Positions 790 to 42,150 of a stretch of 64,000 nucleotides of DNA are shown one piece after another. The stretch spans positions 25,912 to 89,911 of the forward strand of contig JAFRKN010000003.1 in assembly GCA_017431725.1 (NCBI GenBank). Direction: 5' to 3'. Below the pieces are notes generated by a model, which was not told where the DNA came from, did no database searches, and was given only the letters and a program-made list of their open reading frames with translations. This stretch comes from Candidatus Saccharimonadota bacterium. GTDB taxonomy: Bacteria; Patescibacteriota; Saccharimonadia; Saccharimonadales; Saccharimonadaceae. Position 1 is the first letter of the stretch, and each line of letters opens with the position of its first letter. The translations under genes were made by a program, and so were the position numbers.

Positions 790-1308
790 TTATAAAGCGG
801 CTTCTACGGCTGCCCATGTAGCCTCATCATTTTTCGCTGGTATCGTAGCAGAAACCTGCGCCCCTTCCTTTAATCTAAAATAAGTCACTGAAGCATAAAG
901 AATCTGATATTCTTTGCCGGCTACTTCTACATAATATTTATCGTCATGGTGAGTCAAGGTCCCGATTACAGTTTTACGCTCAACCGGCCCAATTTGTTTG
1001 TACAAAAATTTCCCGTCATCAGTAATTGTTAGCTTCATAATGTCACCCTCAACCAACTTGGACTTAGAAGCATAGTTGGCGGGCACTGGATAATTTTTGC
1101 CATCCGGACCAATCATAATTTGCCCATCAAAAATTCCTTCTATGACCTTTCCTTCTGGACCAGAGACTACCGTGTCTCTAGGAGCAGCTATAGTCTCCCC
1201 ATCACCAATAATAGAAATTAATAATTCTTTTGCAGCCGACAAATTCGTCTCTGCCTCACTCAACAGACTCCTCAGCCTCTTTATTTGTTTTTCTGGTATT
1301 TCAGACAT
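790..1308 (-). CDS. Conserved hypothetical protein (CPR-type family)
   Basis: Open frame in ORF track (790..1386). ATG at 1308 follows a GAGGTG SD. A terminator-like hairpin (AAAAACCGCC/GGCGGATTT) lies at ~766-781. Confidence 0.7.
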   Translation of the reverse strand: MSEIPEKQIKRLRSLLSEAETNLSAAKELLISIIGDGETIAAPRDTVVSGPEGKVIEGIFDGQIMIGPDGKNYPVPANYASKSKLVEGDIMKLTITDDGKFLYKQIGPVERKTVIGTLTHHDDKYYVEVAGKEYQILYASVTYFRLKEGAQVSATIPAKNDEATWAAVEAAL

Positions 1309-1434
1309 CACCTCGCATTCCTGCCTAAATATAGTATTAATATTATAATATATCTGTAAGCTCACAAAGTCAAGCTTTTTTAACAAAAGTTTTCCACCAA
1401 AATCACATCGGTCCCATTAAAAATGTTGTAAAAA

Positions 1435-2493
1435 TTACATTTTTTCAGATTTCCAAAGTCCAGTATGTCTTTTTCCGTCAAAAATCATGGTTGGAATACC
1501 TTTGACTTTCAATATATTTTCGACAATATTGCGATTTTCTGACATTTTTGTAGCAATTTCTGGATATTCCGTGATTTGACGAATTTCCGCAATAGCTCCT
1601 TCATCTAGACCAGCCTCATTTAACCACTGTTCAATCTTATTTATCGCTTGTTCTGCGGTATAATCTTCGTTAAATTTGTTTTGATAGGATATTCCCTCAC
1701 TATTTTTGTCCATAAATATGTGATCTATAATTTCGAGCGATAAACCTGAGCGTATTTGCTCAGCCGCAAACATATATTTTACTATAATCTCTGAATTTTT
1801 AAATTTATAAGCTCCGTCAGCATCTTGAATAGCAAATGGCACCAAACGAACATTATAAGAATCAAAGAAACCAGCTTCTTTTTGGTTTCGATATGAAATC
1901 ATACAGACTGAACAGCCTGGATCAAAAATATCCACTGCAATTGACAGATCTGGTTGTTCTGTTGTGTTGATGGCAATATAATTAAAGTCATAATCCCTGG
2001 CATCATAAGTTTTAAATTTATCGGGGATAGCTTCAAAAATTTCTCCCCATTCCGTAAACCATCTACCAGTAGCTTCAAATATATTAGAAGGTTCGCTTTC
2101 ATCAATTGAACAGATTTCTGCTCCCATTGAGCAAGCCGAAGGTTTTGTCACATTGCAACTTCCGAGCGCCCAAAGTGCCAACAATGATTTTATTGCTGTT
2201 AGAATTGCCCAAACTGCCACTATTACTATGACGACAGATAAAATTTCAATAGTCACAGAAAGTGGCTTGGTCCACTTAGGGTGTTTAATAATTACTCGAC
2301 TCAGTAAAGTGTTTTTTACATCGTCTTTAAATCCAGTTTCACATTTTTGTAAACGCACCTTCTTCCATAAACACCCCCAAGCCTTCTTAAACATTTTAAG
2401 ATAAGCCTTACCTACTTTTGGCTTAAAAATTGAAATTATTGCGACGAATATTCCGATAATCGCCAAAATAATAAACGCAGCTATACACACCAT
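1435..2493 (-). CDS. Membrane-anchored thioredoxin/DsbA-fold protein with Cys-rich N-terminal region
   Basis: Two hydrophobic segments, FDPGCSVC (CxxC) and C-terminal VKGIPTMIFDG (cis-Pro loop of DsbA fold). Confidence 0.7.
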   Translation of the reverse strand: MVCIAAFIILAIIGIFVAIISIFKPKVGKAYLKMFKKAWGCLWKKVRLQKCETGFKDDVKNTLLSRVIIKHPKWTKPLSVTIEILSVVIVIVAVWAILTAIKSLLALWALGSCNVTKPSACSMGAEICSIDESEPSNIFEATGRWFTEWGEIFEAIPDKFKTYDARDYDFNYIAINTTEQPDLSIAVDIFDPGCSVCMISYRNQKEAGFFDSYNVRLVPFAIQDADGAYKFKNSEIIVKYMFAAEQIRSGLSLEIIDHIFMDKNSEGISYQNKFNEDYTAEQAINKIEQWLNEAGLDEGAIAEIRQITEYPEIATKMSENRNIVENILKVKGIPTMIFDGKRHTGLWKSEKM

Positions 2494-4778: not shown

Positions 4779-4856
4779 TCTAAGTTCCTTTGGTTAAATT
4801 TAATACTTGGTTAGCTAATTGTTAAATAGCGTCACCAAATAAAATTATAAGAAATT

Positions 4857-4902
4857 TCCTCGGCGACATGATTAAGAGCAAAACTCCGTCGCTGTCTTTG
4901 GT
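4857..4902 (-). promoter_or_regulatory. L10 leader (autoregulatory RNA) candidate
   Basis: Minus strand CCAAAGACAGCGAC...TTAA...GTCGCCGAGG upstream of rplJ resembles the AGACAG...CGAGG L10-leader pattern. Confidence 0.75.
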
Positions 4903-4944
4903 AACTTTCTTAATTATAACACACAACTTAAATTTCGGCAATAT

Positions 4945-6650: not shown

Positions 6651-7214
6651 TTAAGAAGTTTTATCGAGATCCATTAATAAGATCTTGACTTTTGAGAGTA
6701 CTTCGCACTGTTTTTCCAGTCGCTTCTCTCTCGCTCGGTAATTTTCTGTATAACCGTTAGTCATCGGGTATCTCCGAATACAAGATTCAATTTCTTTAAT
6801 TGAATCTTGTATCTTTGAAAAAAGAACATTCTGTTCTTTTTCAACACGGACGTCATATACAGCTTGTCTTCTTTCTGGGAGAGAAAAACCGAAAATTATT
6901 TTTTTGACTTTTGTAAGCGCAGCTTCTCTTTTGAGTTTCAGCTCCTCGAATGATATTCTATCTCCAGAATACCCTTCGATGAAATTTCTCGATTTAGACA
7001 AGGTATAGATTGTCCTGAGTTTAGAATTATAGAATCCATCGCTACAGAACTTCTCATACCCACGATGAGATTTAGGAATGCCAAGCTTTCCTGCTGCCCA
7101 CAACCAGACCTCATGCTCATTCATAATTTGGTCGTAGCTTTTCCAGAAAGCTAACAGCTCCTCTATCTCCTGCCTTCTTGAGTCTTCTAAAGGTTCAGCC
7201 TTACTTTTTGTCAT
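6651..7214 (-). CDS. Hypothetical protein inserted between rplK and rplA
   Basis: Open frame; ATG at 7214 with AGGAGGGG SD; own promoter; terminator AGGGAGAC/GTCTCCCT at 6622-6642. Confidence 0.7.
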   Translation of the reverse strand: MTKSKAEPLEDSRRQEIEELLAFWKSYDQIMNEHEVWLWAAGKLGIPKSHRGYEKFCSDGFYNSKLRTIYTLSKSRNFIEGYSGDRISFEELKLKREAALTKVKKIIFGFSLPERRQAVYDVRVEKEQNVLFSKIQDSIKEIESCIRRYPMTNGYTENYRAREKRLEKQCEVLSKVKILLMDLDKTS

Positions 7215-7245
7215 AATACCCCTCCTTTGTAAAGCATATACTACT

Positions 7246-7294
7246 ATTATATCATACATAACAAAAAAAGTCAAGCTTTTTACGCTTGACTTTT
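7246..7294 (-). promoter_or_regulatory. Sigma70 promoter overlapping the rplK terminator hairpin
   Basis: TTGACT (7274-7269), 17 bp, TGn-TATAAT (7251-7246). The -35 lies in one arm of the AAAAGTCAAGC/GCTTGACTTTT hairpin. Confidence 0.75.
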
Positions 7295-7314
7295 AAGAGG
7301 ATTCAATCTGTAGA

Positions 7315-7743
7315 CTATTCAACTACTTCAACACCCATTGAACGAGCTGTCCCCGCTACAATCTTAATTGCTCCTTCAATATTAACAGCATTTAGTTGGT
7401 CCATTTTCTTTTCAGCAATTTCTTGAAGCTGCGCCTTTGTAATCTTGCCAACTTTATCAACATTCGGCTTGCCTGAACCTTTATCAATCTTAATTGCTTC
7501 ACGAATTAAATCATCTACTGGCTGGCCCAATGATTTCCAATCAAAAGTTCGGTCCTCAAAAACTCGAATATGGACAATTACATTCTTCCCCATTAAATCT
7601 TTAGTTTTTTCATTGAATGGGTTAATGAAATCCATCATATTTAGGCCCCACTGACCGAGCGTCGAACCTACCGGAGGACCAGCTGTCGCTCGGCCTGCCG
7701 GAATTCGGAGTTTTAGATTTCCAATTACCTTTTTTTCTGCCAT
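7315..7743 (-). CDS. rplK: 50S ribosomal protein L11
   Basis: AGRATAGPPVGSTLGQ, GTARSMGVEV. Confidence 0.98.
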   Translation of the reverse strand: MAEKKVIGNLKLRIPAGRATAGPPVGSTLGQWGLNMMDFINPFNEKTKDLMGKNVIVHIRVFEDRTFDWKSLGQPVDDLIREAIKIDKGSGKPNVDKVGKITKAQLQEIAEKKMDQLNAVNIEGAIKIVAGTARSMGVEVVE

Positions 7744-7784
7744 GATATCTAAATACCTTTCTAGTGCGTAACATTATAATTATA

Positions 7785-8330
7785 TCACAATTGCTTTACT
7801 TGTAAAGCGTCGAGCTCAACTGGCGTTTCGCGTCCAAACATCGAAACCATCACCTTAAGTTTACCTTTAGCAGCATCAATTTCTGAAATTGAACCGTCGA
7901 AACCCTTAAATGGCCCATCCGTAATTGAAACAACTTCTCCGACCTCATATTTAACTGAGAATTTCGGGTCTTCAACACCCATACGCTTCTTAATTTTCGC
8001 AATTTCTTTTTCTGAAACTGGCGTTGGCTGTGTTCCGGTGCCAATAAATCCAGTCACACCAGGCGTATTGCGAATAATATACCAAGTTTCATCCGATAGT
8101 TTCATATCTACCAAGACATAACCTTGTAAAATCTTACGATCCACAATCTTTCGCTTGCCGTTTTTAATCTCGATTTGCTTTTCTTTTGGTACAATCGCCT
8201 CAAAAATTTTATCGGCCATTTCTACCGTGTTAGTTCTCTGGTTGATGCTATCTGCCACTTTATCCTCGTAACCACTGTAAGTCGAGATAGCATACCAAGC
8301 TCTTGTATCATCATATCTGTTTACTGCCAT
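7785..8330 (-). CDS. nusG: Transcription termination/antitermination factor NusG
   Basis: WYAISTYSGYEDKV, RNTPGVTGF, KOW motif ITDGPF, MFGRETPVEL. Confidence 0.98.
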   Translation of the reverse strand: MAVNRYDDTRAWYAISTYSGYEDKVADSINQRTNTVEMADKIFEAIVPKEKQIEIKNGKRKIVDRKILQGYVLVDMKLSDETWYIIRNTPGVTGFIGTGTQPTPVSEKEIAKIKKRMGVEDPKFSVKYEVGEVVSITDGPFKGFDGSISEIDAAKGKLKVMVSMFGRETPVELDALQVKQL

Positions 8331-11558: not shown

Positions 11559-11700
11559 TGGCTGGGGATGAGGGATTCGATTCGAAGAACGAGTCCTGCT
11601 TTTTGTGCATGCTCGTTAGAGCATGGCTGGGGATGAGGGATTCGACCGGAGCGTCAGCGACGGACGAGTCCTGCTTTTTGATGTTTTTGTGAAACAAAAA
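11559..11700 (-). repeat. Two exact 22-nt copies of the tRNA-Gln 3' end separated by motif-bearing units
   Basis: TGGCTGGGGATGAGGGATTCGA occurs at 11559-11580, 11624-11645 and 11701-11722. Both intervening units contain ACGAGTCCTGCTTTTTG. Confidence 0.95.
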
Positions 11701-11775
11701 TGGCTGGGGATGAGGGATTCGAACCCCCGAATGTCGGGACCAGAACCCGATGCCTTACCACTTGGCGAATCCCCA
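11701..11775 (-). tRNA. tRNA-Gln(CTG)
   Basis: Cloverleaf TGGGGAT/ATCCCCA, anticodon arm TCGGG-TTCTGGT-CCCGA, GTTCGAATC T-loop, encoded CCA. Confidence 0.97.
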
Positions 11776-32400: not shown

Positions 32401-32727
32401 TATTGGCTGATCGAGCTTTCGGTCATAATCTTCAGAGTAATTTTTATATTGCGCTAAAATTTCCGAGCCAAACGCATGGTATGTTCCGATATTAACCTTT
32501 AAAGCATCATTACCAATAATCGACTTAAGCCGTTCGCGCATATTTTTGGCACCAGTTTCTGTAAAAGTTAAGCACAAAATATTTTCTGGGTTTGTATCCA
32601 AATTTTCTAAAATGTAAGCAACTTTATGGCTTAAAAGCTGCGTCTTACCAGTACCTGGCCCTGCCAAAACCAAAAGAGGCCCCCCGAGATATTCTACTGC
32701 CTCTTTCTGTTTTTGGTTCAGGCCCAT
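29485..32727 (-). CDS. UvrD/PcrA-family helicase with C-terminal PD-(D/E)xK nuclease
   Basis: AGPGTGKT, LDEFQD, VGDDDQAIY, ENYRS, YVALTRA; C-terminal GKIDH...YDFKT. Confidence 0.92.
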   Translation of the reverse strand: MGLNQKQKEAVEYLGGPLLVLAGPGTGKTQLLSHKVAYILENLDTNPENILCLTFTETGAKNMRERLKSIIGNDALKVNIGTYHAFGSEILAQYKNYSEDYDRKLDQPINEVIQYKIIKKLQDNLPATDILKGDSVKDIMGVISEAKAANLSAKDLFKIAEKNIEDSKVLSEAISPLLKNVVPYKFRESYDNAYMPIYETLKEYGNLKPILGTIERSIAGLARDLKEAILLASETEKIKPLSDWKDKYFEKDKANNYRLKDRVANKKLLSLAGIMSNYDQYLKENGLYDFNDMIEEAVKILKDDDGFRMTLQERYQFIMLDEFQDTNPSQFAIVKELTNYENPMVMAVGDDDQAIYEFQGALASNLTDFQKHYSANVIPLVENYRSTQEILDFSHEIIKQAPDRFADKELIAHNKNPKVSQVNRYEFISSDAEYGFVADEIVKLITNGVKQSEIAVISYKTKYFEPLLPFLKAHQKIRIAYEKKDNLFDDEKIHEILTIARFVDEIANEKKPSVQILEILSYPFFKLSTLEILNLVGRAKSEHRTALEVLSEAENPKIVEVIKFLADLAAKSFLEPLDTMLDYIIGTSELNGYRSPLLEYYVTENHDEYEIFTFYESLAALRGKITKHFCEKPLRLADLIEMLDDYLAAEMPLNISSPYRESEDAVSVLSAHKAKGLEFSYVFIISADHMAWGKGKGNNNLLSLPKNLIQIRHTGITDGEKLRVLYVALTRAKKALYITNSLRDFNDKSPERLEYFNEYVENDEVISPFLPTKKVNCLYDTATLEKRQQNLKNWLSVFTGYTPDLREIYKNRVEKWRMSATALSSFVDIVYAGPQAFFKSYVLQAPREPKTESLAFGDLVHEVFETVTKKNISDEEALKLFNSKLDKEDLSVEIKQAIREKGPNSLIASLKKFKDILRQGKAEVDFGAEKIVIDGVPVTGKIDHIIIDEKRKTIEIYDFKTAGYHKEKWESHASLYKYMLQLGFYKLLLNHSTQYKKYKVEKAHILFVTPDYDGEVHDKIYEFTEEEETKLKQLMRAVYQNVYSLNFIDDPDMFIAPNEKFGVKDIKKFIELLLAKNKTF

Positions 32728-33497
32728 TTATCACTTCTCTCAATCAAATTTAATAAAAGTGACACGTTTTCAGGTATAACAATCTCTCCACGCTTAATTT
32801 TTTTTAGAGCTGATATCCCTTCTACGGTTTTTTCTGGTTGATAATCAGGATTATCTTTTAATTTATCGCCAAATTCAAAATTACGCGACGGATAGGCGCA
32901 AGTAATTTTTAAATCTCCCTTACCACAAACTAAATCTACTGTTTCTGGCTTCGCCCCATTAGCTTTTAAAATTAATTTCATCTCATTTTCGACATCACTC
33001 AAAAATTTTCGGTGCTCTTTTGTCCCCGTTTTTAGCCCCAACAAACCAGCCAATATTGCGTAAACATTTTTTAAAGCTCCGCACATCAAAACACCTTTTT
33101 CATCATCTGTCGTATCAAAAGTCAAATAATCAGTCCCAAACATCTTGAGAATTCTTTCGTCAGTCGCGGTTAATTTGGTCTTTTTATGCGCTTTTATATC
33201 GACTGCAAAACCCGGCCCAGACAGAATCATATAATCTTTAAAATCTTTAAAAGTATCAACAGACAAAATACCTTTTGTCGCAATAATTAGAGGCTTCTTT
33301 TTTGGCAAATGTGGTAAAAGATATGGTACAGATTTTGAAGGCACCGCCAAAAGAATCATTTGCGCAGTCGCCAAAACTTCTTGCAAAGGTTCATTCATGA
33401 TTTTTGAGTCATAATAATCCACGTCATACCCATTATCGGTTAAAATACTTCCTAGTGCTGTCCCAAATGCCCCCGCTCCTAAAATCGCTATTTTCAT
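32718..33497 (-). CDS. gpsA: NAD(P)H-dependent glycerol-3-phosphate dehydrogenase
   Basis: GAGAFGTAL, ATKG, LSGP, GALKNVYAI, GDLKITC, SRNFEFG, TVEG. Confidence 0.88.
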   Translation of the reverse strand: MKIAILGAGAFGTALGSILTDNGYDVDYYDSKIMNEPLQEVLATAQMILLAVPSKSVPYLLPHLPKKKPLIIATKGILSVDTFKDFKDYMILSGPGFAVDIKAHKKTKLTATDERILKMFGTDYLTFDTTDDEKGVLMCGALKNVYAILAGLLGLKTGTKEHRKFLSDVENEMKLILKANGAKPETVDLVCGKGDLKITCAYPSRNFEFGDKLKDNPDYQPEKTVEGISALKKIKRGEIVIPENVSLLLNLIERSDKWA

Positions 33498-33532
33498 TTT
33501 TGTTATCCGATTAAATAAAAAAATAATATTGA

Positions 33533-33676
33533 AAGTAGGACTCGCTCGAAATAGTAGCGACAACCGATGCCCTGCTTTTTAATACACTTTCGCAAGAAAG
33601 TGGTGCTGGAAGTAGGACTCGATTCGAATGAAGTGAGAACCGATGTCCTGCTTTTTAATGCACTTTCGCAAGAAAG
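33533..33676 (-). repeat. Exact 22-nt and partial 12-nt copies of the tRNA-Tyr 3' end separated by near-duplicate motif units
   Basis: TGGTGCTGGAAGTAGGACTCGA at 33601-33622 equals 33677-33698; AAGTAGGACTCG at 33533-33544. Both units contain AACCGATG(T/C)CCTGCTTTTTAAT(G/A)CACTTTCGCAAGAAAG. Confidence 0.95.
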
Positions 33677-33761
33677 TGGTGCTGGAAGTAGGACTCGAAC
33701 CTACGAAGCCCGAAGGCGAGAGATTTACAGTCTCTTGTCATTGCCACTAGACGATTCCAGC
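33677..33761 (-). tRNA. tRNA-Tyr(GTA)
   Basis: GCTGGAA/TTCCAGC acceptor, AGAGA-CTGTAAA-TCTCT anticodon arm, long variable arm, encoded CCA. Confidence 0.97.
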
Positions 33762-33827
33762 TCACTCATAATTATATGGGATTTCCACAAAAAAATCAAC
33801 TTTATTAAGCATCTTCTGATTTTTAAA

Positions 33828-37298: not shown

Positions 37299-37375
37299 GG
37301 GGCGTTAGCTCAGCTGATTAGAGCGCTACTATGGCATAGTAGAGGTCATGAGTTTGAATCTCATACGCTCCACCA
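37299..37375 (+). tRNA. tRNA-Ala(GGC)
   Basis: GGGGCGT/ACGCTCC acceptor with G3:U70, CTACT-ATGGCAT-AGTAG anticodon arm, encoded CCA. The D-loop has GA instead of GG and the T-loop has TTTGA instead of TTCGA, consistent with a compensatory A19-U56 pair. Confidence 0.93.
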
Positions 37376-37441
37376 AAAATGAAAAGCCAAGAATTTATTC
37401 TTGGGTTTTTATTTTTTAGGAGTGGCCTGAGATTACTTCGT

Positions 37442-37460
37442 AATCTCATACGCTCCACCA
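37442..37460 (+). repeat. 19-nt duplicate of the tRNA-Ala(GGC) 3' end
   Basis: AATCTCATACGCTCCACCA at 37357-37375 and 37442-37460. Confidence 0.92.
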
Positions 37461-37533
37461 AAGTAGGAGCCGAACAAAAAGAGAGTTGCACTCTCTTTTT
37501 TGAGGCGACGCCCTTTGGTCTTTAAGACCATTT

Positions 37534-38154
37534 TTATATTGCATCTGCAAACAACACTAATCGATGCGAAGCATCGCCATTTCCATAAGAAATTCCGTAA
37601 CAGGTCATCAAAGCAATATTATATTGCGCCCCATCAAAATTCGCATTTGCAACCGATTTCATATAGCTTCCTTCTCCATTCATTTGTAAACGACCATTTG
37701 TCGTATTTTTTTCAAAAATCACTACTCTTTTTACCTGATAATTCGTTGAAAGACCATCAAGTGTAAGTGTAAAACTACTCCCCACCCCCAAATTTACTAA
37801 ACCACCAAAGACCACACTCGTATTATGCCCATACAAAAATCTATCACCGTATTTGTTTACATGATTACCAGAATCGACCGCTGTATTCGCCACATTAACA
37901 ACCGCCAAATTTCTTCCAGCAATCGCAATAGAATTTGCCGGCGCCACTGATACAACGGGCACAACCTGAGTATTAGCAGTAGTAACCGTCTGAACTCCAT
38001 TAGTTTTAGCAACTGGCCTTTCAATTTCAACAGTATTGACAGCATGAAATTCTGGTTGCCTTATTATAAATGAATCGTCTGCTGTCAAAAAATTAGGTGT
38101 GTTTATAACCCCAATTAAACTTAAAAACAGTAACAAAAAAAGGCGTTTCGCCAT
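37534..38154 (-). CDS. Sortase-like secreted protein
   Basis: Signal/TM, LYGHN, ALMTC, HRLVL; promoter TTGACA-17-TATAAT upstream. Confidence 0.65.
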   Translation of the reverse strand: MAKRLFLLLFLSLIGVINTPNFLTADDSFIIRQPEFHAVNTVEIERPVAKTNGVQTVTTANTQVVPVVSVAPANSIAIAGRNLAVVNVANTAVDSGNHVNKYGDRFLYGHNTSVVFGGLVNLGVGSSFTLTLDGLSTNYQVKRVVIFEKNTTNGRLQMNGEGSYMKSVANANFDGAQYNIALMTCYGISYGNGDASHRLVLFADAI

Positions 38155-42110: not shown

Positions 42111-42116
42111 ACATAG

Positions 42117-42150
42117 GAAGCGAGAACGAAAGTCTTGCTTTTTTGATGCA
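42117..42150. repeat. Copy of the tRNA-associated motif unit, inverted relative to the tRNA
   Basis: GAAGCGAGAACGAAAGTCTTGCTTTTTTGATGCA aligns with GAAGTGAGAACCGATGTCCTGCTTTTTAATGCA at 33630-33662. Confidence 0.75.

Follow-up and report, generated by a model that had tools for sequence, protein, structure and literature searches.

The 64,000-nucleotide stretch of a Candidatus Saccharimonadota genome analyzed here (the window) carries on its minus strand a tRNA-Tyr(GTA) gene that is followed by a tandem array of copies of its own 3' end. The array contains two units of a repeat family that we term class A. Each unit consists of a body and a tail; the tail is the copy of the tRNA 3' end, and the body includes a strand complementary to it, the anti-tail. 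Units were scored with R1, a covariance model built from 8 units. The gpsA gene lies downstream in the same orientation, and a terminator scan returned no terminator between the array and this gene. The locus is made up of the following features.

33771..33799, minus strand: promoter-like site TTGATT-17-TATAAT just upstream of tRNA-Tyr (10/12 in a consensus scan, a pattern match only)
33677..33761, minus strand: tRNA-Tyr(GTA) gene with encoded CCA (ARAGORN; Rfam tRNA model, 57.6 bits)
33601..33676, minus strand: unit 1, class A, 76 nt, a 54-nt body plus a 22-nt tail (model R1, 91.1 bits, E = 2e-19)
33663..33676, minus strand: hairpin 1 of unit 1, CTTTC-TTGC-GAAAG, its first base directly 3' of the tRNA-Tyr CCA (from the sequence)
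33645..33656, minus strand: A-tract and start of the anti-tail of unit 1, AAAAAGCAGGAC (motif search; four A's invariant in the seed alignment)
33612..33651, minus strand: hairpin 2 of unit 1 (minimum-free-energy fold; covariation, 95% of cells paired)
33601..33622, minus strand: tail of unit 1, an exact 22-nt copy of tRNA-Tyr positions 55-76 including CCA (script check)
33524..33600, minus strand: unit 2, class A, 77 nt, with a 56-nt body and a decaying 3' half (model R1, 78.3 bits)
33524..33544, minus strand: decayed tail of unit 2, 12 nt exact (33533-33544) plus 9 nt (script check)
32718..33497, minus strand: gpsA, encoding NAD-dependent glycerol-3-phosphate dehydrogenase (Pfam PF07479 and PF01210)

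The layout described in the initial annotation, a 54-nt unit, an exact 22-nt copy, a 56-nt unit and a 12-nt copy, was found by script to be correct to the base. Only 54-56 nt of hairpin sequence separates the tail copies, and neither a recombinase gene nor island DNA, as expected of an attachment-site (att) scar, lies between them. Hairpin 2 of unit 1 encloses an apical mini-hairpin and is formed by pairing of the anti-tail, GCAGGAC-A-TCG..., with positions 56-65 of the tail (CGAGTCCTAC). The 5' halves of the two units are near-identical (35 of 37 positions), and the tail of unit 2 differs from the expected tail at 5 of its last 9 nt, all five differences being GC-to-AT transitions. The initial annotation had further stated that both units open with the same hairpin and share a motif with the units behind a tRNA-Gln gene elsewhere in the window. 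In line with this, the sequence and a motif search showed that both Tyr units begin with the CTTTC-TTGC-GAAAG hairpin and then carry AAAAAGCAGG(A/G)C, a motif that the 64-kb window contains four times exactly, each time within a Tyr or Gln unit, and once more with one mismatch. None of 100 shuffled controls gave five matches. Model R1 recovered the four window units with E values of 2e-19 to 7e-13 and matched nothing else in the window. On the strength of these motif counts and R1 scores, the kinship of the Tyr and Gln units is real and not due to chance.

To place the array in its family, class A was followed through the genome of origin, the genus and beyond. The genome itself (752 kb, 39% GC, 49 tRNA genes) has seven tRNAs with copies of their own 3' ends behind them in an exact-tail search, and R1, together with R2, the model of a second family (class C) described below, added tRNA-Ser(CGA) and tRNA-Asp, bringing the number of tRNAs with units to nine. 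Two class A units with diverged tails follow tRNA-Ser(CGA), and one unit resembling the RtT RNA of Escherichia coli follows tRNA-Asp; these units lie outside the window at G000:C3:19229-19370 (minus) and G000:C3:77346-77484 (plus). Within the genus, 68 of 151 genomes gave R1 matches, for a total of more than 230 class A units, and R1 gave no match in the 149 genomes taken from some 120 other genera of the order. A search of 185,579 species genomes for an exact 25-nt core pattern matched only Candidatus Saccharibacteria/Nanosyncoccus metagenome-assembled genomes, some of them from the ruminant gut. The class A and class C core patterns were both absent from viral contigs, and class A matched no Rfam family, the only matches at the loci being to the tRNA model.

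Across the 75 arrays examined, placement behind a tRNA was the rule. Fifty-six begin no more than 6 nt from the tRNA 3' end, and in 7 further arrays another unit or a terminator intervenes, with the tRNA still less than 400 nt away. The hosts comprise 14 tRNA species, among which Tyr and Ser(CGA) are the commonest, and the identity of the tail follows the local tRNA. Most arrays are short, with one unit in 55, two in 17, and three, four and five units in one array each. In 37 of 56 arrays, the last unit ends in a tail without mismatch over 21 nt. Many Tyr units of relatives lie between tRNA-Tyr and tRNA-Thr, inside a tRNA operon. Between tRNA-Thr(TGT) and tRNA-Thr(GGT) at L029 (G069:C21) stands a class A unit whose tRNA-Tyr tail has decayed; this unit without its tRNA-Tyr indicates that a unit can outlast the loss or relocation of the tRNA. 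A palindromic element of about 100 nt, with AT-rich arms and a GC-rich terminator-like core, flanks arrays of relatives at L033 (653-760 and 990-1100) and is also found at L030, L036 and L011; it is probably a repeat family that is present elsewhere in the window as well.

Class A units are 62-78 nt long and follow a single order: a 5-6-bp hairpin directly after CCA, a linker ending in a near-invariant AAAAAG, a long interrupted hairpin, and an unpaired end that consists of the remaining acceptor 3' strand and NCCA. The tail, 21-22 nt long, starts at T-loop position 55/56. The 5' strand of the long hairpin is the anti-tail, which pairs with tail positions 56-65, and its apex is a GC-loop-GC mini-hairpin. 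Covariation in the alignment strongly supports this two-hairpin structure, with 94% of cells paired compared to 77% in shuffles, 99 cells changed on both sides, and 11 of 15 pairs compensated. In hairpin 1, all five pairs show compensatory changes (38 distinct units). The anti-tail tracks the tRNA that the unit follows, reading GGAC/GTCC for Tyr, GGGC/GCCC for Lys and Val, GAGAT/ATCTC for Ser(GCT), and GGAT/ATCC for Arg and Gln, and the inner 3-bp helix occurs in at least six complementary forms. Moreover, in the Tyr-unit-Thr context found across species, hairpin 1 differs by compensatory changes, which argues for selection on folding and against a decaying scar. The linker TGCATTAAAAAG was also considered as a decayed complement of the tRNA-Tyr acceptor end, and this was rejected, as tRNA-Tyr ties with three other tRNAs at 10 of 18 positions.

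A sister family, class C, occurs behind other tRNAs and behind the tRNA-Tyr of other species. Its units are RtT-like, about 140 nt long, and have a palindromic terminator-like hairpin before them; the larger classes carry tails of 18-19 nt. The class C alignment folds as a four-way junction whose closing helix, P1, is formed by anti-tail and tail, and compensatory changes are seen in 41 of 45 pairs (341 cells) and in 10 of the 11 pairs of P1. Model R2 detected class C in 124 of the 151 genus genomes, with more than 680 copies in total and at least 21 in the richest genome, and weak matches, each of them behind a tRNA, came from 13 further genera of the order. Class C and RtT share a rule for the 5' arm, which at 13-16 of 18 positions reverse-complements tRNA positions 52-69 and places GA opposite G57-A58; by this rule, the GAGAACC...GGTTCGA that they share is the universal T-loop with its complement. 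In exact register, and at as many as 35 of 45 positions, the tail of the tRNA itself is mirrored by terminator hairpin and anti-tail at several loci; the resulting layout is direct tail, hairpin, inverted tail, hairpin and direct tail. The T-arm and the trailer hairpin are short inverted repeats that flank exactly the duplicated segment. The class C model scored class A unit 1 at only E = 0.78. In antisense it gave no match to class A units, and on this ground class A as an inverted class C fragment was rejected.

On balance, we favor the reading that the Tyr feature is a two-unit array of a genus-specific tRNA-linked repeat family, of the same kind as the tRNA-linked repeats (TLRs) of E. coli. 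The unit appears to sit inside the tRNA transcription unit, here between tRNA-Tyr and gpsA and in many relatives between tRNA-Tyr and tRNA-Thr, so that it is most likely synthesized within the tRNA precursor. Indirect evidence for this comes from the promoter-like site before tRNA-Tyr and from the terminator scan, which gave no terminator between the tRNA and the units or ahead of gpsA. In the precursor RNA, the anti-tail would pair with the tail copy, sparing the real tRNA from mispairing with either, and this pairing would leave a 3' end that resembles a tRNA end to the processing machinery. Arrays expand and contract via unequal crossing-over or slippage between the 22-nt tails, and the outermost tail, which escapes this homogenization, decays under AT-biased mutation. 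As for its origin, the direct-inverted-direct layout may have been born by replication error at two natural hairpins, the T-arm and the trailer hairpin, and could then have spread between tRNAs via the conserved T-loop sequence.

Several observations weigh against this reading. First, 13 of the 56 last tails have at least three mismatches; tails thus tolerate decay, and their exact identity is not essential. Second, bodies that are 88-92% identical carry different tails, for example at a Ser(CGA) locus (L071) and a Gln(TTG) locus (L050), which have the T-loop/T-stem start CGAATCCT in common. Alike bodies with different tails, in a family confined to one genus, imply that units have moved between tRNA loci; the conserved T-loop sequence at the junction of body and tail may have served as a recombination or template-switching site for such tail swaps. 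Third, every feature of class A that depends on the strand is better read in antisense. Loops that are T..C in sense are GNA, GNNA or GNRA there, the conserved TC/TC flanking the apical stem becomes tandem G.A, and the invariant AAAAAG before the hairpin becomes T5 after it. Finally, class A stems have no bias of G.U over A.C (36:32). Since a sense RNA under selection should show a wobble bias, selection on class A may act on DNA, and the sequences leave room for a DNA-level role of the units, as hairpin or recombination site. In class C stems, G.U was counted 35 times versus 21 for A.C, and the GNA loops are found in sense.

A first alternative, which we regard as unlikely, is that the units are miniature non-autonomous integrative elements or reduced island ends that were placed at the tRNA 3' end by a site-specific recombinase. 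In that case, the tail would serve as an att core that restores the tRNA, and in an attP-like palindrome the anti-tail would be the symmetric half-site. In this genus, islands of large serine recombinases do insert at the 3' ends of tRNAs, with duplication of a tail of 17-19 nt. At L170 (G098:C20:4500-24400), tRNA-Gln(CTG) is separated from a 17-nt copy of the tail by an island of 11.3 kb that encodes a serine recombinase of 525 aa, and in the genome of origin (G000:C4:~7060-8165, minus) the C-terminal frame of such a recombinase runs antisense through tRNA-Leu(TAG) to the contig end. At least one large serine recombinase is present in 81 of the 151 genus genomes, often in tandem pairs. Further, 'orphan' units are found distal to islands, preceded by tail fragments with island DNA upstream. 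Integration through a palindromic attP would be expected to give the observed order of tail, interior, anti-tail and tail, the lack of wobble bias fits a constraint at the DNA level, and a family of one genus nevertheless has 14 tRNA species as hosts. The units themselves fit this explanation poorly. At 62-78 bp they are too small to circularize, their architecture recurs hundreds of times, unlike the products of random internal deletions, and their stems vary freely under strict complementarity, which points to nucleic-acid folding rather than to a protein that reads a fixed sequence. The right ends of islands have no anti-tail hairpin and the unit at L170 lies outside the island; units and islands are therefore treated as separate users of the same site.

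Candidate enzymes gave the integrative alternative no support either. Among the 151 genomes, a large serine recombinase as mobilizer showed no positive association with class A (32/36 versus 49/34, odds ratio of about 0.6), and a reverse transcriptase as copier of tails was likewise rejected, its presence being unassociated with class A (36/32 versus 37/46, odds ratio of about 1.4). The genome of origin has no IS110, Y1 (IS200/IS605 or RAYT) or TnpB genes, and viral contigs hold no copies of the units. The genome does encode two Xer-like tyrosine recombinases and two unclassified reverse transcriptases. The latter lie outside the window at G000:C8:7120-8259 (minus) and G000:C7:~1280-2410 (plus) and are nearest to group II/Drt/retron models, far under the cut-offs; homologues occur in 73 of the 151 genus genomes. 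All tRNA genes of this genome encode CCA. The islands between a tRNA and an orphan unit at L075 (G002:C16:1-8046) and L170 encode proteins with DUF4379 treble-clef repeats, one of which also has a REase_MTES_1575 nuclease domain, together with a HATPase_c_3 protein at L075 and an AAA_14/DUF4143 ATPase at L170; this content resembles that of a defence island.

Mobility might also be a property of the modules themselves. We consider it quite doubtful that the class A and RtT-like modules are self-propagating, enzyme-poor tRNA-targeting elements, in which a folded DNA or RNA hairpin, as a mimic of the T-arm/acceptor side of the tRNA, would direct its copying behind new tRNA genes. The route would be either structure-specific recombination, comparable to that of integron attC sites, or template switching at the universal T-loop, with a new tail gained each time. 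If true, this would explain the origin of the E. coli TLRs.

The strand asymmetry raises the question of whether the functional strand is the one opposite the tRNA, which we judge to be decidedly improbable. That strand could act as an intrinsic terminator that shields the tRNA gene from convergent transcription, as a small antisense RNA or as a single-stranded DNA hairpin. As RNA, it would have a 5' end complementary to the tRNA acceptor 3' strand and CCA, and as DNA, its GNA-loop hairpins would be recognized in replication or recombination. The GNA, GNNA and GNRA loops, the tandem G.A flanks and the T5 after hairpin 2 all agree with such a role, and folding in antisense is no less stable than in sense. 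However, the neighboring genes are co-directional with the tRNA, and many units lie between two co-oriented tRNAs, so that there is nothing convergent to terminate. In addition, no promoter like the local TGnTATAAT ones points toward the array, and the stems have no excess of A.C.

For the growth of the arrays, the initial annotation had proposed polarized, tRNA-proximal addition as in arrays of clustered regularly interspaced short palindromic repeats (CRISPR), on the grounds that the distal copy is the more degraded. The observation itself stands in that strong decay is confined to the most distal tail: a strongly decayed tail belongs to the last unit in 3 of 18 multi-unit arrays and to an inner unit in none of the 18. 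Its reading as ordered addition is not supported; tandem repeats that are homogenized by unequal crossing-over are expected to have a degenerate repeat at their edge. Identical neighboring units are found in many arrays (four in L055, two in L053, others elsewhere). The suggested comparison of unit order across relatives could be made with one syntenic relative only, a metagenome locus with 80% GpsA identity (L126), in which a short-long-short-long series lies between tRNA-Tyr and gpsA. This series is a recently duplicated two-unit block. At L062, five units have three tail substitutions in common that are absent from the adjacent tRNA-Gln, and sub-blocks of the array share more; these tails were thus copied from unit to unit and were not freshly templated by the tRNA. 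Collectively, the sequences indicate that arrays grow by unequal crossing-over or slippage between the 22-nt tails.

It is accordingly very improbable that a CRISPR- or integron-like process places each new unit next to the tRNA, duplicates the tail and so records the order of acquisition. Besides the distal decay, the arrays at L026 and L027, with an extra short-type unit proximal to the long-type unit that stands alone in L028, suit such a process, and it is contradicted by the identical neighbors, the duplicated block and the tail mutations shared between units. The inserts between tails, which would be its 'spacers', are homologous to one another and are not captured sequences. Machinery of the Cas1-like or integron type did not turn up, although Cas1 was not searched for; of the tyrosine recombinases, the second resembles Xer. 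A last alternative is one local slippage event that duplicated the tRNA-Tyr trailer with no link to other loci, and the initial annotation had named such an event, without relation to the Gln locus, as the outcome that would speak against it. It agrees with the 35 of 37 positions common to the 5' halves of units 1 and 2, yet it is refuted by the census, with the same unit family behind 14 tRNA species in 68 genomes at E values down to 1e-19. The motif match to the Gln locus, moreover, beats the shuffles.

Two further loci in the window carry units of the two families.

11701-11775, minus strand: tRNA-Gln(CTG) (ARAGORN; whole sister locus 11559..11775)
11624-11700 and 11559-11623, minus strand: two class A units behind tRNA-Gln(CTG), with exact Gln tails (model R1)
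37299-37375, plus strand: tRNA-Ala(GGC) (whole locus 37299..37541)
37409-37541, plus strand: reduced RtT-like unit behind tRNA-Ala(GGC), ending in a 19-nt Ala tail (model R2, 46 bits; C8:63320-63452)

At the Gln sister locus, a terminator follows the second unit. At the tRNA-Ala(GGC) locus, a terminator hairpin comes first and is followed by the hairpin in which the anti-tail pairs with the Ala tail; the mimic in this unit has A3-U70 where tRNA-Ala(GGC) has G3-U70. A supposed inverted unit behind tRNA-Ala(CGC), at 42111-42150 (plus), was rejected, as it gave no R1 match; on the strand of this tRNA, the segment is an ordinary intrinsic terminator with a GAAA-loop hairpin followed by T6. The window also contains a Ribosomal protein L10 leader at 4831-4919 (minus; Rfam RF00557, 53.6 bits).

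These modules are uncatalogued structured repeats that annotation pipelines have overlooked. TLRs have been known in E. coli since 1978 with their origin and function unexplained, and this single genus of reduced gut Saccharibacteria has hundreds of such modules, whose diversity lets the rules of their construction be read: a direct-inverted-direct repeat from T-loop to CCA, a covarying anti-tail, hairpins at the junctions, and unequal recombination. If the modules are processing or insulating elements, they bear on tRNA maturation in minimal genomes, and if they are mobile, they would represent a new and very small class of tRNA-targeting element.

Among known systems, the att duplications left by tRNA-integrating islands of tyrosine or large serine recombinases resemble the array in having a direct repeat from T-loop/T-stem to CCA, and in this genus they occur at the same tRNAs. 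The islands, however, span kilobases, carry a recombinase and have right ends without an anti-tail hairpin, whereas the units have a covarying structure, and those analyzed have no recombinase gene inside. Replication errors are known to yield triplications in direct-inverted-direct order that have short inverted repeats as their bounds (PMC4689423). [quoted passage not shown] Known examples extend over kilobases and are unstable, while the modules described here measure about 75-180 nt and are stably inherited with compensatory changes. Furthermore, one and the same body is met behind different tRNAs, and errors arising de novo, locus by locus, cannot be a full explanation.

RtT RNA (Rfam RF00391), the 178-bp repeats of the E. 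coli tyrT-tyrV operon, lies behind tRNA-Tyr like the present array. The closing helix of RtT is formed by the tail copy and an anti-tail upstream of it, beyond which 7-9 nt that end in CCA stay unpaired, and the same pairing with an unpaired CCA end is found in class A hairpin 2 and in class C P1. Model R2 matched all four RtT copies of E. coli K-12 (22-25 bits, E = 4e-6 to 1.5e-5 in 1.7 kb), the aligned parts being the tail helix and the T-loop-derived GAGAACC...GGTTCGA, so that the likeness may stem from shared construction rather than descent. In the other direction, the Rfam RtT model, which has a gathering score of 45 bits and gave 133-138 bits on the E. coli positive control, found nothing at E <= 1 in the window, at the class A loci L001-L003 or at the class C loci L009, L016 and L020, and class A units are without an RtT-like core. 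RtT obeys the same construction rule, which links a proteobacterium with a lineage of the candidate phyla radiation.

The closest counterpart is the TLR of E. coli (Egan & Landy 1978; Rudd 1999, as summarised in PMC8144298). [quoted passage not shown] They are transcribed with the operon, in some cases when a first terminator is read through, and their function is not known (PMC8144298). Class A resembles them in place, orientation, a tail copied from the upstream gene and one to five tandem copies. Unit 1 begins at the base after the tRNA-Tyr CCA, its tail matches over 22 nt exactly, and the arrays examined stay within the same range of copy number. In contrast to TLRs, which are about 100-180 nt long, class A units measure 62-78 nt, carry a longer tail and a two-hairpin body of their own, and belong to one genus of Saccharibacteria. 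The Tyr array is thus a lineage-specific miniature variant of the tRNA-linked repeat.

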